Shown here piece by piece: positions 28,747-40,256 of a DNA stretch of 64,000 bases. The notes below the pieces were generated by a model. That model did not search any database. It saw only the letters and a program-made list of their open reading frames with translations, and was not told the origin of the DNA. The stretch's first letter is position 1; each line of letters opens with the position of its first letter. A program made the position numbers and the translations under genes. The DNA is from Escherichia phage 235Ecol030PP: the sequence record PP355091.1. One strand, 5' to 3'.

Positions 28747-29284
28747 TTACTATTTCCAAAAGTTTATTATTTTTAAGGTAATTAGCCTTTTCTAGGACTT
28801 CAGAAGCATATTTAGAACCAGCTTTAACATTCCATCCCGAATTATAAGAGGATATTGCTTTTCTTATATCGCCCTTATGTATATTTAACCAATAAGAAAG
28901 TTCAATGTACGCCCAGGAAGCTGAATTGGATCGTTTATTCAACATTCTTTTTATTTCAGCATCGGTCATATTATAACCAAGTTCCTTAACTCTTGCTCGC
29001 ATAGTAGGCAAATAATTTTGGAACATTCCGTAGGCGTGATGCTTTGGTTTAGATTTTAAATTAACTCCGCCAGAGCTTTCTTGCCATAAAATGGCTGCCA
29101 TTATATGACCTAATCCGCTCTTGTGGATATTTTTGTGTGTTTTATATTTTCCATCCTTAGAAAATTGTTCCCCGAATTGATACGCGTAACGCATGTTATC
29201 GAGTTGGACATTACTGAAAGTATGCTCGGAGCTATGTGCCATCATTGAAATGGCCAATAGACCAGCGAGTAGTGCTTTTCTCAT
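28739..29284 (-). CDS. Periplasmic lytic transglycosylase-like protein (SLT domain)
   Basis: 181 aa; signal peptide MRKALLAGLLAISMMAHS; SLT motifs WQESSGG, AYGMFQ, YNSGWN. Confidence 0.55.
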   Translation of the reverse strand: MRKALLAGLLAISMMAHSSEHTFSNVQLDNMRYAYQFGEQFSKDGKYKTHKNIHKSGLGHIMAAILWQESSGGVNLKSKPKHHAYGMFQNYLPTMRARVKELGYNMTDAEIKRMLNKRSNSASWAYIELSYWLNIHKGDIRKAISSYNSGWNVKAGSKYASEVLEKANYLKNNKLLEIVND

Positions 29285-29291
29285 GCTTACC

Positions 29292-29753
29292 TCATTGAGT
29301 TTTAATTACTGCTTTAGAAGCCTTTCCTGGTAAACGACGACTGTTGATAATTGCCATCCTACATTGAAGTGACGGGTCTTTGAATTTCGCATTAGGTTTA
29401 CAAACTGTAAATCCAAGCCAAAGATTTCCATCTGTGATTTCTAAACGTCCAGGACGATATTCAACCCCATCAATAAAATCCTCGTCAATGTCAGGACGCG
29501 GAGGCATACTCAGGAATTCATTAACTTCTAAAACATGGTCTTTTATTTTATGGAATAATTCAAAAACATATGTCTCATCAATCTCCCGTTGAATTGCGCG
29601 ATCAAGAAGATGCTGAGAATATTTTAGATGAAACGATGAGACCCCTGCTGCTTTTGATGCCTCACGAATCTCATTGTTAATTTGACGAAACTCCGACTCA
29701 AAGTGACGACGAAGCTTATTTCGACGGATAAAAACTTCTGTATTGATAGTCAT
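29292..29753 (-). CDS. regB: Sequence-specific endoribonuclease RegB
   Basis: 153 aa, same length as T4 RegB; preceded by early promoter; assignment by recalled similarity and synteny. Confidence 0.8.
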   Translation of the reverse strand: MTINTEVFIRRNKLRRHFESEFRQINNEIREASKAAGVSSFHLKYSQHLLDRAIQREIDETYVFELFHKIKDHVLEVNEFLSMPPRPDIDEDFIDGVEYRPGRLEITDGNLWLGFTVCKPNAKFKDPSLQCRMAIINSRRLPGKASKAVIKTQ

Positions 29754-29781
29754 GTTATTCTCCTCTTAACTGATAGAAAAA

Positions 29782-29811
29782 TTATACCACAGTCAAGAGG
29801 AAAAGTAAACA
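29782..29811 (-). promoter_or_regulatory. T4-type early promoter upstream of regB
   Basis: -35 GTTTACT (29805-29811), 17-nt spacer, -10 TATAAT (29782-29787). Confidence 0.6.
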
Positions 29812-29812
29812 G

Positions 29813-30091
29813 TTATTCTTTAAATCTAATCAATTTATTCATAGACTTTGAAACTTCGGCACGAACCTCATGTAGATTTTTGAGCTGTTCAAGACGCTGC
29901 GTATAGTAAGCAATTTCATCTTCTTCGAGACAGTCCTGCGAATCTTCTTTAAGATAACGTGCATAGTCCTGGAAAGCGTTACGGACTACTTCCTGGAAGT
30001 CATCAAGACTTTGAATTTTCTTAGGAGCAACAGATACACGACGAGGGGCAGTATAATACTCATAACCAAACCCTGCGCTTAATTGAGCCAT
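29813..30091 (-). CDS. Hypothetical protein (vs.x region)
   Basis: Track ORF 29813-30133; start set at [13 protein letters not shown] (ATGA overlap with upstream stop). Confidence 0.45.
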
Positions 30092-30357
30092 TAGTATTTT
30101 TCCTCTGGTTGGAACACTGCACGACAAGCCCACATACTGGCTTCTTTGAGTTTCGTTTTAGCAATAGTTAACTGATCGAGGCTTTCAGCATAATTCTTCG
30201 CGAATTCACAGTCTTCACAATTATCTAGTGCTTCCCAGAATTCATCGTATAAAGCGTCAAAGATAAGTCCTAAACGAACTTCAGCGTCTTTGATAGCATT
30301 CACTTTACCGATTTTCTCTTCAGTATGTGGCTTATAACCCTTAATATCTTCAATCAT
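30091..30357 (-). CDS. Hypothetical protein (vs.x region; candidate for the Acb2/Vs.4 position)
   Basis: Track ORF 30091-30393; start trimmed; no motif recognised. Confidence 0.4.
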
Positions 30358-30571
30358 ATTTGACTTCCTCACCAGTACATAAATCATATTCAACTAAACG
30401 AATGGGTTCATGAATGCCATATCCCTGAACAGAAATTTCTGTCGTAGGATAAATTCCATCAATATCACCCATATTCCACGCTTCATTAAATTGCTGTTCG
30501 CCTGAATTACTAAACCACTCGGCGAAAGCATTTAGCACATCTTCAGAACCTTCAATAATTATCTTTGCCAT
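30350..30571 (-). CDS. Hypothetical protein (vs.x region)
   Basis: 73-aa ORF. Confidence 0.45.
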   Translation of the reverse strand: MAKIIIEGSEDVLNAFAEWFSNSGEQQFNEAWNMGDIDGIYPTTEISVQGYGIHEPIRLVEYDLCTGEEVKYD

Positions 30572-30933
30572 TACAAACTTTCGGTGAAGGTACGAGCGAT
30601 AACGTCGCGCTGCTGTTCCGGAGTCAGAGAGTTAAAGCGAACTGCATAACCGGATACACGGATGGTCAGCTGCGGATATTTTTCCGGATGCTTAACTGCA
30701 TCTTCCAGAGTTTCACGACGCAGAACGTTAACGTTCAGGTGTTGACCACCTTCAATTTTAACTGTAGGCTGTTGCTCAATTTCAATTTCACGGGCATGCA
30801 AACCATAGAAAATTTCTGGGTCTACAAAAGAGTCCTCTTTAAAGGTTTTAGAAACGATAATTCGTGCTTGAATACCATCTTCAAAATAAATAGTACCTTT
30901 GTGTGTGCCTTCAAGAATTTGATATGCTTTCAT
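30571..30933 (-). CDS. Autonomous glycyl-radical cofactor (GrcA/YfiD-like)
   Basis: 120 aa; C-terminal [25 protein letters not shown] contains the glycyl-radical signature RVSGY. Confidence 0.8.
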
Positions 30934-30940
30934 ATAAACC

Positions 30941-31270
30941 TCAATTAGAAAATAAATTTATCCAAGATTGTTCTTTAATTAAAAATGGCTCAGAATCATA
31001 TGCCATTAAACTCTGTGTGATTAGTCCTTTAAAAGGCCCATCAATAAATTCCATGGTAAAATATGGAATTTTATTCATTAGCCGTGCATTAGGAGCCGTG
31101 CACAAAACTCTGCATCCTTTGAATACGCCTTTTTGTAATTTGTATTGCTTAGGATAAAATTCGCTCAAAATGTTATTTTTTGCCAAAATTTCAAAATGAT
31201 TCACCAATTTATTTTTAATAGTTTTTGGTGAAAAATAAAGATATTCGAAAAGCTGAGTGTCTGTCATCAT
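30941..31270 (-). CDS. Hypothetical protein (start at MMTDTQ, overlapping upstream stop)
   Basis: Track ORF 30941-31321; ATGA overlap with stop of 31267-31806. Confidence 0.4.
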
Positions 31271-31806
31271 TGCATTCCGATTACGAAAAACTGTGGACGA
31301 GTAATACCACCAATGCAACATTTAATATTACAGCAGCAGTGTACAGTGTCAATATGGACACTATAAATCTTATCCATATCAGGAGATTTGACAGGCTCAT
31401 CAATTATATATAAAATTCGCGAAAGCTTTAAACCTCTGAACTTGCTTCCTTTATTACCGATAAAACTGCGCACAGAATCAGTAAATAAACGAAAACGTAT
31501 ATCATCATTAGAATAACGCGAAAATTCCTTTTTAATGTTATTTGCAGAAATTTTAGCGTAAGCTGAAGTATTAGAAAGAACAATAACTGTTCCGCCATCA
31601 TACAACCAATTAGCAGCAAAGTTAGTCACAGCAATTGATTTACCGGATTGACGCCCACCATCTAGTCGAAGTGTGCAATACTGTTTAAGTAAGTCTTCAA
31701 ATGGCGGGATATATTCGTTTTTACAAATTTCTTCTACTCTAGCATCAGAATGGTGTGTAAAAGCATTCATCAGGGATAGATAAGGACCAGTTAAAAATGT
31801 TCTCAT
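31267..31806 (-). CDS. P-loop NTPase with Cys-rich C-terminal tail, hypothetical
   Basis: 179 aa; Walker A GGRQSGKS, Walker B ILYIIDEP; C-terminus HCCCNIKCCIGG. Confidence 0.45.
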   Translation of the reverse strand: MRTFLTGPYLSLMNAFTHHSDARVEEICKNEYIPPFEDLLKQYCTLRLDGGRQSGKSIAVTNFAANWLYDGGTVIVLSNTSAYAKISANNIKKEFSRYSNDDIRFRLFTDSVRSFIGNKGSKFRGLKLSRILYIIDEPVKSPDMDKIYSVHIDTVHCCCNIKCCIGGITRPQFFVIGMQ

Positions 31807-31971
31807 TTCTTCTCTCTAAATTTGGGCCATTCCGTGGCGCATGAATTGTCCATTTCTGTATTTACCCATTACCGCACTTGGGCTCGACCTTATTACAGGT
31901 TGGCGGGAATCCCTCACAGAATCATGAGGTCCAGCTTGTTCCCATTTTATTTGAATGTAAATAGATCTGAG

Positions 31972-32550
31972 TTAGGAATTACGGGCTGCATTAGCAACGG
32001 CGTAAGCGTACTGGACATTAGCGTCTTTAAACGTACCTTTAGAGGTATCTATTTCTGCCTTAAAGCCGCCTTTAGCCATAGCATCGGCAAATTCTTTACG
32101 GAAAGCCATTGCATCAAGACCTTTCCATGATGATTTATGCTTGGCAAATTCAAGACCAGCGTAGTTGACAGCCTTAGCTAATTTATTATCAATAACCCAT
32201 TTACCGGCTTTAGGCACAAACTTCGGGCCTTTTTGTTTAGAGAACAGTTTTAAATTCCAGCGACGAAGGTCACTGTCGGCTTTAACAAAAGCTGCGTCTA
32301 AGTTACTAGCAACAACATCTTCAATATGAGCAAATTTAAGTCCGTCAACTTCAATATTTAGATCGTTACGCCAGCGAAGTCCTTCCCAAGCGAAGGCTTT
32401 AAAGTCGGAAGCCTTTGTAGCTAAGTACCGTTCAATAGGAGCTGTTTTAGGGTCAAAGCCGTTTCCCGATCGGTAGGTCCACTCATCTTTATTAATGCCT
32501 TTGGCCTTTACTATAGAAGCTTCGGCAATAAATTCTTGATAGGTTTTCAT
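31972..32550 (-). CDS. ipIII: Internal protein III-like head protein (capsid targeting sequence MKTYQEFIAEA)
   Basis: 192 aa; N-terminal MKTYQEFIAEA is the classic T4 internal-protein targeting/cleavage leader; early promoter upstream. Confidence 0.75.
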   Translation of the reverse strand: MKTYQEFIAEASIVKAKGINKDEWTYRSGNGFDPKTAPIERYLATKASDFKAFAWEGLRWRNDLNIEVDGLKFAHIEDVVASNLDAAFVKADSDLRRWNLKLFSKQKGPKFVPKAGKWVIDNKLAKAVNYAGLEFAKHKSSWKGLDAMAFRKEFADAMAKGGFKAEIDTSKGTFKDANVQYAYAVANAARNS

Positions 32551-32611: not shown

Positions 32612-32872
32612 TTAAGCTTTACCGCCAGAAATAATTCCGAAGTTGTTAAAATCATATCCAATATCGTCAACATCTACTTTAGGACTTGCTACAACATAAG
32701 CAATTTCACTACATTTTGCACAGGTGTTGATTTCTTTACCATCGCCACCTAAGAAAGAATACCCATTACGTTTTAATGAGCCAAAGTCTTCCGCATCATC
32801 AATGAAAGCTTTAACTTTAAATTTAGAACCTTTGGCATCTGCTTCAACGATAAATTCTTGATACATTTTCAT
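32612..32872 (-). CDS. Internal-protein-like gene (IPII position), CTS leader MKMYQEFIVEA
   Basis: 86 aa; leader matches IP consensus; rest unrelated to ipIII. Confidence 0.6.
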   Translation of the reverse strand: MKMYQEFIVEADAKGSKFKVKAFIDDAEDFGSLKRNGYSFLGGDGKEINTCAKCSEIAYVVASPKVDVDDIGYDFNNFGIISGGKA

Positions 32873-32878
32873 TTTTCC

Positions 32879-32982
32879 TTAGTAAATTGATTTACCAAAG
32901 TATTTGTACCAAGTCGGACGTTGATCAATTTTTTCATCTAAGCGTGCTTGATTTATCGCAATGGACGCTTCGGACGGGTCAT
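32879..32982 (-). pseudogene. denV: denV (endonuclease V, pyrimidine-dimer glycosylase) remnant: start codon plus C-terminal about 34 codons, out of frame
   Basis: Promoter, GGAGGAAATT and ATG ACC CGT (MTR) intact, stop after 9 codons; shifted frame encodes [32 protein letters not shown] matching recalled T4 DenV C-terminus. Confidence 0.7.
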
Positions 32983-33009
32983 AATTTCCTCCAAGTAGTT
33001 GATGAATGT

Positions 33010-33039
33010 ATAGTATCAAAACCCTTGGAGGAAGTAAAC
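33010..33039 (-). promoter_or_regulatory. T4-type early promoter (denV promoter)
   Basis: -35 GTTTACT (33033-33039), 17-nt spacer, -10 TACTAT (33010-33015). Confidence 0.55.
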
Positions 33040-33041
33040 AA

Positions 33042-34282
<1,241 letters not shown>

Positions 34283-38898: not shown

Positions 38899-38974
38899 TG
38901 GTCGAGGCAGTAGGGATCGAACCTACGACCCAGGACTTAGAAGGTCCTTGCTCTTCCTTCTGAGCTATGCCCCG
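38899..38974 (-). tRNA. tRNA-Arg (anticodon TCT), CCA encoded
   Basis: Manual fold: acceptor CGGGGCA/TGCCTCG, anticodon stem AGGAC/GTCCT, loop CUUCUAA, T-arm GTAGG-TTCGATC-CCTAC; 76 nt. Confidence 0.85.
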
Positions 38975-38977
38975 TAA

Positions 38978-39643
38978 TTAAAATTTCATTTTTCGACCTT
39001 TAAACCATCCTTCTGGAATTGGGTCAGTTTTCTTAATACGTTTAGAAACTTTTTCATCTAATGAATGAATCCACATCATACCAAATTGGGAATTCTTTTC
39101 GCCCTGTTGATGTTTATTTCTGGCGTGAGATTCTTTCATTTTATTAATAGTTTCAGGAGTATGATGCTTATTTAAAAATCTGCTATTATTTAAAAATTTT
39201 TCCCTGTATTCAGGAGTTGACCACAAGCGTTTAAATACATTTGAACCATGTTTACGATATTTTTCTTGAAGTAAAATATCATTTTTAAAACGTGACTTAA
39301 ACGATTTAGCTCCTTTTAAGCTAGCATCTTTCTTCTGGTTTAGCATCCCAGGAATATTTACATGATCCCATCCACCTTCACCACCAAGTTTTAAATTATA
39401 CACATCTGGTCTATTTAAAAACTCTTCTGTGACAATATTTTTCTCGGCTTCAAGCATAGATTCTTTATCGTCAAAGAACTCTAATATTTCTTTAGAAAAA
39501 TTTTCTATACCATACTTATCTTGGGCTCTTTTTAATAATTTACCAGAACCCATATATCCATCATCTAAATTTTCGGTAGAATGAGCGCCTATATAGATTT
39601 TATTATTAATTTTATTTGTTATTTTATAAATGTAATGGAACAT
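38978..39643 (-). CDS. segB: GIY-YIG homing endonuclease SegB within tRNA cluster
   Basis: 221 aa; MFHYIYKITNKINNKIYIGAHS (GIY-YIG) N-terminus; located between tRNA-Arg and main tRNA cluster as in T4. Confidence 0.85.
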   Translation of the reverse strand: MFHYIYKITNKINNKIYIGAHSTENLDDGYMGSGKLLKRAQDKYGIENFSKEILEFFDDKESMLEAEKNIVTEEFLNRPDVYNLKLGGEGGWDHVNIPGMLNQKKDASLKGAKSFKSRFKNDILLQEKYRKHGSNVFKRLWSTPEYREKFLNNSRFLNKHHTPETINKMKESHARNKHQQGEKNSQFGMMWIHSLDEKVSKRIKKTDPIPEGWFKGRKMKF

Positions 39644-39684
39644 AAATATCTCCTATTTCTAAGAGTATTTATGTTCTCAAAATA

Positions 39685-39756
39685 TGGCCCTGGGTGGAAT
39701 TGAACCACCATCTGGCGATTATGAGTCGCTTGCTTGAACCTTCCAGCTACAGGGCC
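39685..39756 (-). tRNA. tRNA-Ile (anticodon CAT; Met-type anticodon, assigned Ile by T4 precedent), CCA not encoded
   Basis: Acceptor GGCCCTG/CAGGGCC, anticodon loop CUCAUAA, T-arm GGTGG-TTCAATT-CCACC; 72 nt. Confidence 0.8.
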
Positions 39757-39762
39757 TTGATA

Positions 39763-39835
39763 TGCTGATTGACGGAATCGAACCGCCGACGTCCTCATTA
39801 CAAGTGAGGTGCTCTACCTACTGAGCTAAATCAGC
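39763..39835 (-). tRNA. tRNA-Thr (anticodon TGT), CCA not encoded
   Basis: Acceptor GCTGATT/AATCAGC, anticodon stem CCTCA/TGAGG loop CUUGUAA; 73 nt. Confidence 0.85.
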
Positions 39836-39842
39836 GAAATTA

Positions 39843-39929
39843 CGGAGGCGATAGGATTTGAACCTATGAGTCGCCGGAGCGACTGCCGGTTTTCAAGACC
39901 GGTGCATTAAACCACTCTGCCACGCCTCC
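39843..39929 (-). tRNA. tRNA-Ser (anticodon TGA), long variable arm, CCA not encoded
   Basis: Acceptor GGAGGCG/CGCCTCC, anticodon stem CCGGT/ACCGG loop CUUGAAA; 87 nt. Confidence 0.85.
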
Positions 39930-39931
39930 AG

Positions 39932-40005
39932 TCTCCGTGGCAGGATTTGAACCTACGACATTCTGCTCCCAAAGCAGACGCTCTACCAAACTGAGCTACA
40001 CGGAG
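39932..40005 (-). tRNA. tRNA-Pro (anticodon TGG), CCA not encoded; separated from tRNA-Ser by 2 nt
   Basis: Acceptor CTCCGTG/CACGGAG, anticodon stem TCTGC/GCAGA loop UUUGGGA; 74 nt. Confidence 0.85.
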
Positions 40006-40017
40006 TAAATTAAATTT

Positions 40018-40089
<72 letters not shown>

Positions 40090-40095
40090 AAACTT

Positions 40096-40182
40096 TGGTA
40101 CGAGAAGTGGGACTCGAACCCACAAGGAAATCATTCCGCAGCATTTTAAGTGCTGTGTCTTTACCAATTTGACCATTCTCGC
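40096..40182 (-). tRNA. tRNA-Leu (anticodon TAA), long variable arm, CCA encoded
   Basis: Acceptor GCGAGAA/TTCTCGT, anticodon stem CAGCA/TGCTG loop CUUAAAA; 87 nt. Confidence 0.85.
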
Positions 40183-40183
40183 G

Positions 40184-40256
40184 CTGGGAATAAAGGACTC
40201 GAACCTTTGCATCCTGGAATCAAAATCCAGTGCCTTACCAACTTGGCTAATTCCCA
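40184..40256 (-). tRNA. tRNA-Gln (anticodon TTG), CCA not encoded; 1 nt from tRNA-Leu
   Basis: Acceptor TGGGAAT/ATTCCCA, anticodon stem CTGGA/TCCAG loop UUUUGAU; 73 nt. Confidence 0.85.

Follow-up and report, generated by a model that had tools for sequence, protein, structure and literature searches.

Predicted immune-signal sponges Vs.4/Acb2 and Vs.3/TadIV-1 lie beside a third small protein, the acidic Vs.5, in the early-gene string of a T4-like Escherichia phage

Positions 29813 to 30571 of the 64,000-nucleotide stretch of Escherichia phage 235Ecol030PP analyzed here (record PP355091.1, hereafter the window) correspond to vs.5-vs.4-vs.3, a segment of the string of early genes that runs from vs.8 to regB in a T4-like phage (Tequatrovirus). 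We consider it highly probable (roughly 94%) that this segment encodes two decoys for nucleotide immune signals, Vs.4 as Acb2 and Vs.3 as TadIV-1, together with Vs.5, a third and acidic protein. Sequence identity, family membership, key residues, gene order, and purifying selection are demonstrated here; the activities are those published for the identical T4 proteins. The roles of Acb2 and TadIV-1 have already been described for those proteins, and apart from the question of Vs.5, the segment presents no new biology.

The sequence-only reading had recognized three small open reading frames of 73-92 aa in this segment, and these are vs.3, vs.4, and vs.5, each of which has exactly the extent of its annotated T4T counterpart (Table 1). 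All long open reading frames around the segment lie on the minus strand, and a mechanical list of them gives 106 and 100 aa for vs.3 and vs.4, as it extends both to upstream GTG/TTG codons. The translations of all three genes are 100% identical to the T4T proteins. At the nucleotide level, vs.3 does not differ from T4T at all, while vs.4 and vs.5 carry seven and five differences, respectively, and all 12 of these are synonymous, which indicates purifying selection on real proteins. Homologs in phage records number 701 for Vs.3, 1235 for Vs.4, and 988 for Vs.5 (the last by tblastn). From 29200 to 31000, the window is 98.4-98.8% identical in nucleotide sequence to many Tequatrovirus genomes, T4 and T4T among them at 98.6%. 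However, over 24 kb the best-matching record covers only 90% of the sequence at 95% identity, implying that the window derives from a mosaic T4-like phage rather than from T4 itself.

Table 1. Features of the window discussed in the text (coordinates are those of the 64,000-nucleotide stretch)
Feature	Coordinates	Strand	Product or description	Basis or position
regB	29292-29753	-	153 aa; site-specific mRNA endoribonuclease	Downstream neighbor of vs.3; 1 aa unlike T4T RegB
T4T-identical tract	29643-30181		538 nt
Promoter-like site	29781-29809	-	σ70/T4-early type, TTTACT-17-TATAAT with TG	59-nt vs.3-regB spacer; consensus match only
vs.3	29813-30091	-	92 aa from ATG at 30091	T4T annotation placed on window
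vs.4	30091-30357	-	88 aa from ATG	T4T annotation placed on window
vs.5	30350-30571	-	73 aa	T4T annotation placed on window
vs.6	30571-30933	-	120 aa; GrcA/YfiD-like autonomous glycyl-radical cofactor	Upstream neighbor of vs.5
vs.7	30941-31270		109 aa	T4T annotation placed on window
vs.8, ATG-start form	31267-31806		179 aa
vs.8, TAG stop where T4T reads Tyr	31807-31917	-
Internal-protein-like ORF	31972-32550	-	192 aa
Internal-protein-like ORF	32612-32872	-	86 aa
denV-region ORF	32879-33076	-	T4T DenV aligns at 33007-32882
Internal-protein-like ORF	33042-33338	-	98 aa
e	33320-33808		Lysozyme
tRNA cluster	38899-40256	-	Eight tRNA genes

The sequence-only reading had also suggested that one of the three frames might be Acb2 (Vs.4) but could not tell which, and it proposed a comparison with the T4 protein. 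That comparison gives a clear match for the middle frame, which is identified from its sequence as the Vs.4/Acb2 sponge and occupies the position of the annotated T4 vs.4 gene. Among all PDB sequences, it matches the crystallized T4 protein (7UQ2 chain A, "Vs.4") without a mismatch over 87 aligned residues (E 9.9e-57), and it passes the threshold of the Pfam family PF24729 (Acb2_Tad1_hairpin) with 71.4 bits against a cut-off of 27 (E 7.1e-20), spanning profile positions 1-58 of 58. The match to the Acb2 protein of Pseudomonas phage PaMx33 (p26; 8IXZ and 8H2J) is weak although full-length (E ~0.03). The contact residues Y8, K23, and F82 are present, for which tyrosine stacking, a lysine salt bridge, and F82 stacking have been described, as are Y37, A57, L60, D61, T64, and T68; T4 Y8 corresponds to PaMx33 Y11, and the equivalence of K23 with PaMx33 K26 was taken from the Vs.4/PaMx33 sequence alignment. 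The T4 protein and the window frame thus share sequence, 88-aa length, location between vs.5 and vs.3, and ligand-contact residues, and the seven synonymous nucleotides noted above for T4T are the sole difference.

The properties of the T4 protein have been worked out previously. T4 Vs.4, since renamed Acb2, forms a hexamer whose three bound cGAMP molecules can be released unaltered, and as a sponge it raises the activation threshold of CapV. It binds 3',3'-cGAMP with a Kd of ~84 nM, its range of cyclic dinucleotides is the same as that of PaMx33-Acb2, and the mutations Y8A and F82C abolish nucleotide binding. The T4-type protein differs from PaMx33 Acb2 in that it binds cyclic dinucleotides but not cA3; neither cA3 nor cAAG is bound, which has been attributed to Y37, A57, L60, D61, and T64 together with an unkinked helix. 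Acb2 also has a liability, as it sequesters the decoy 2',3'-c-di-AMP and so triggers the Panoptes defense system.

The other two frames are not Acb2. The frame at 29813-30091 is, as judged from its sequence, Vs.3/TadIV-1, a sponge for N7-cADPR that acts against type IV Thoeris. A search of PDB sequences matches it to 9WIW (E 2.6e-37), the apo structure of TadIV-1 from phage UPEC07 (Chen et al., Nat Commun 2026; PMC13243611). Searches of Pfam, NCBIfam, and PHROGs with Vs.3 returned only sub-threshold noise (Tex_N and UvsW_N were among the results for Vs.3 and Vs.5) or phrogs of "unknown function". T4 Vs.3 is both necessary and sufficient for inhibition of type IV Thoeris; it sequesters N7-cADPR (KD ~216 nM) and leaves the molecule undegraded (PMC13243611). 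Among the proteins from Vs.3 through Vs.8, produced one at a time, Vs.3 was the only one to impair this system (PMC13243611). TadIV-1 is a two-helix dimer in which the disordered N-terminal loop forms the binding site, and mutants of the T4 protein have shown R17, R18, and K24 to be important for binding (PMC13243611). Only homologs of ~90 aa are active, whereas those of ~70 aa are not, so that the active form is defined as a long form of more than 80 aa with a flexible N-terminal loop (PMC13243611). The window copy is identical to T4T vs.3 in both nucleotide and protein sequence and is the long, 92-aa form, in which R17, R18, and K24 of the N-terminal loop are all present; the crystallized 101-aa UPEC07 protein differs in an N-terminal loop nine residues longer. 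The presence of the gene need not confer the phenotype: phage T2 remains sensitive to type IV Thoeris although its TadIV-1 is functional, perhaps because too little of the protein is made (PMC13243611).

Two further observations concern vs.3. The molecule in 9WIW is named "Endoribonuclease", and TadIV-1 homologs are labeled "Endoribonuclease (RegB)" in GenBank, for example in slur14 (NC_028448); this label is probably an annotation error carried over from the neighboring regB. In addition, a tract covering the 5' end of regB, the promoter-like site, the whole of vs.3, and the 3' end of vs.4 matches T4T at 100% identity, whereas its flanks differ from T4T at about 1 per 50-60 nt. This pattern suggests that a patch of T4-type sequence spanning the TadIV-1 gene was acquired recently by recombination.

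Taken against these results, it is scarcely credible that the frames are chance open frames or that the Acb2 ortholog is another of the three. Neither Vs.3 nor Vs.5 has any Acb2 match (for Vs.5, in PDB sequence, Pfam, and Foldseek searches), in contrast to the identity of Vs.4 with 7UQ2, and chance frames are ruled out by the identity with T4 proteins, the exclusively synonymous substitutions, the solved structures, and the hundreds of homologs.

The arrangement of the three genes is tight. The vs.4 start falls within the end of vs.5, so that the two overlap by 8 nt (ATGATTGA, 30350-30357), while vs.6 and vs.5 (at 30571) and vs.4 and vs.3 (at 30091) each have one base in common in the sequence TAATG. 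GAGG motifs resembling Shine-Dalgarno sequences precede the vs.4 and vs.3 starts. From the abutting and overlapping stop and start codons, we infer that vs.5, vs.4, and vs.3 are co-transcribed on one transcript and probably translationally coupled. In a scan for promoters and terminators, counts did not exceed those in shuffled sequence, and only the regB-proximal site stood out; a search of the 29813-30571 interval against Rfam found no RNA family.

The three frames had been placed in the interval between regB and denV. This location holds, but the interval is fuller than that description implied, as it also contains vs.6, vs.7, vs.8, and two internal-protein-like frames, and the denV end of it is represented only in part. 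T4T DenV (138 aa) aligns in the window only over residues 96-137, at 74% identity, and the N-terminus of the frame in this region is unrelated to DenV, so that endonuclease V appears, by this alignment, to be present only as a 3' remnant. The vs.6 product matches Pfam Gly_radical (2.5e-18) and scores 154.9 bits against NCBIfam TIGR04365, below the cut-off of 170; it differs from T4T Vs.6 by one residue, with Q54 here and P54 in T4T. In vs.8, a TAG stop replaces a T4T tyrosine codon and splits the 216-aa GTG-start form of T4T into a 33-aa upstream frame and the ATG-start form given in Table 1, as in phage G4498, and this shorter form may be the real gene.

The space between vs.8 and e is filled by three frames of 192, 86, and 98 aa. 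None of the three matches a Pfam family. Two of the N-termini, MKTYQEFIAEA and MKMYQEFIVEA, and that of the third frame when read from an internal Met, resemble the N-terminal capsid-targeting sequence of T4 internal proteins. At this locus, the T4T order is vs.8-denV-ipII, and in T4 ipIII-e comes next. The region looks like a variable internal-protein locus, possibly carrying anti-restriction cargo. Farther along the window lies a cluster of tRNA genes (Arg-TCT, Met/Ile-CAT, Thr, Ser, Pro, Gly, Leu, and Gln), similar to the tRNA region of T4.

To place the segment among its relatives, gene order can be compared across seven regions that bear vs.5, all of them from Straboviridae (T4T and six other genera). 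T4 and the window share the order vs.8-vs.7-vs.6-vs.5-vs.4-vs.3-regB. This order is kept in VR26 (Gaprivervirus) without vs.6 and in PHB12 (Mosigvirus) with a short vs.3 of 71 aa. CBH8 (Winklervirus) has vs.8-vs.7-vs.5-vs.4-regB, and both BovinicusUrsus (Jiaodavirus) and Entb_43 (Karamvirus) have vs.8-vs.7-vs.5-vs.6-vs.4-regB, the former without vs.3 and the latter with an unrelated 76-aa frame in the vs.3 slot. UTK0003 (Gelderlandvirus) retains only vs.8-vs.5-regB. The genes vs.3, vs.4, and vs.6 are therefore variably present, like accessory genes, whereas vs.5 is constant in all seven regions.

Vs.5 itself is identical in sequence to T4 Vs.5, a member of phrog_1986, which PHROGs annotates as "function unknown". 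It is strongly acidic, with a pI of 4.05, 15 D/E against 3 K/R, and a net charge of approximately -12. It has no match in Pfam or NCBIfam, and its sole match among PDB sequences, SurE (E 0.0086), was judged to be due to chance. An AlphaFold2 model built with 11 close homologs was unusable (pLDDT 57), but the addition of distant relatives from an exhaustive profile search, giving 14 sequences, raised the pLDDT to 88.2 and yielded a confident α+β fold with an N-terminal extended segment, a helix at residues 10-33, and β-strands at 44-49 and 58-63. In Foldseek searches with this model, no relative was found in the PDB (best E 1.4, query-normalized TM-score ≤0.36), and BFVD returned only uncharacterized members of the Vs.5 family. 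The exhaustive profile search itself, run against 1.84 billion representatives, gave 16 matches, comprising nine small proteins of phage type, with long FG-GAP_3 repeat proteins making up the remainder. One metagenomic relative of 118 aa (P0019) joins the N-terminal 39 residues of the Vs.5 family to a PG_binding_1 peptidoglycan-binding domain (E 1.5e-8); as a single case, it is probably a chimera.

T4 is known to carry several inhibitors of nucleotide immune signals. Tad1, Tad2, Acb4, sequestin/T4 Y16Q, and lockin follow the same strategy as Vs.3 and Vs.4, each being a small, oligomeric protein that sequesters such signals, and they have no sequence relation to Vs.3 or Vs.5. In Pfam, NCBIfam, PDB, and Foldseek searches, Vs.5 showed no similarity in sequence or fold to Tad1, Tad2, Acb2, Acb4, sequestin, lockin, or TadIV-1. 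A positively charged nucleotide-binding pocket has been reported for many known sponges, although the trait is not universal. The excess of acidic over basic residues in Vs.5 argues against a basic nucleotide pocket, with the qualification that this refers to the sequence of the monomer and that some known sponges do without a strongly positive pocket.

What, then, might Vs.5 do? It is possible, at odds well short of even, that it is a third counter-defense protein with a new fold, which, on account of its acidity, would be a protein-binding inhibitor or a nucleic-acid mimic and not a nucleotide sponge, in which case vs.5-vs.4-vs.3 would form a three-gene anti-defense cassette. The position of vs.5, adjoining or overlapping the genes of two proven sponges, is consistent with such a role, as are its small size, its place in the early-gene string, its restriction to Straboviridae among the regions compared, its marked acidity, and a fold that is confidently predicted and lacks structural relatives beyond its own family. 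However, none of the seven Tevenvirinae regions is without vs.5, even where vs.3, vs.4, or vs.6 is missing, and the gene is more core-like than these patchy neighbors; its constancy where they vary weakens the case for Vs.5 as one more accessory anti-defense gene. Moreover, Vs.5 expressed alone left type IV Thoeris unimpaired (PMC13243611), and a literature search by gene names (vs.3, vs.5, and regB) and UniProt-style names found nothing on Vs.5. The same retention in every lineage compared would suit a housekeeping or accessory factor unrelated to defense, such as one that works with the GrcA-like Vs.6 or modulates some host enzyme, and vs.5 directly adjoins vs.6 in four of the seven lineages (T4, Mosigvirus, Jiaodavirus, and Karamvirus). 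We regard this as unlikely, as domain and fold searches linked Vs.5 to no enzyme partner, and an obligate partnership with Vs.6 is ruled out by the three lineages (VR26, CBH8, and UTK0003) in which vs.5 is present without vs.6.

The long repeat proteins recovered by the exhaustive search raise another idea, namely that Vs.5 corresponds to one β-propeller blade of FG-GAP type and oligomerizes. An hhalign comparison of the Vs.5 family with these repeats aligned 25 columns (WFSNSGEQ.F.E....GD.DG) at 72% probability and a pairwise E of 3.4e-5. Nevertheless, the library E-values arise from the summing of 7-10 repeats, no match to Pfam FG-GAP or FG-GAP_3 appeared even with the E-value limit set to 10, and the aligned segment falls largely within the α-helix confidently predicted by AlphaFold2 rather than in its β-strands, making a propeller blade very improbable. 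Homology of Vs.5 to FG-GAP proteins was accordingly rejected on the predicted helix and the lack of a Pfam FG-GAP match and is left as a similarity of motif: Vs.5 residues 18-53 (window 30412-30520) resemble the FG-GAP_3 repeat core WFENNGSQSFTE...GDFDG of bacterial repeats (P0014 and P0017).

Returning to the reading of the segment as two sponge genes with an acidic companion, a likely sequence of events can be outlined from the identity with the T4 proteins. The Vs.4/Acb2 hexamer would bind 3',3'-cGAMP and related cyclic dinucleotides, so that the CBASS effector would stay inactive. In the Vs.3/TadIV-1 dimer, the flexible N-terminal loop and helix α1 of the partner subunit would trap N7-cADPR, and the caspase-like effector of type IV Thoeris would consequently remain off. 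Vs.5, as a small and very acidic protein, would be made alongside them, from a gene that is probably co-transcribed and translationally coupled with those of Vs.4 and Vs.3.

The annotation of this part of the genome is thereby settled: it encodes two adjacent and proven sponges for immune signals, of which Acb2 counters CBASS and TadIV-1 counters type IV Thoeris. The phage is predicted to be resistant to both of these systems and sensitive to Panoptes, which Acb2 triggers, with the proviso, illustrated by T2, that gene presence does not guarantee phenotype. Given that vs.5 adjoins the sponge genes, is present in every region compared, and encodes a protein with a confidently predicted fold that has no known relative, it would be reasonable to knock the gene out and screen the mutant against a panel of defense systems.
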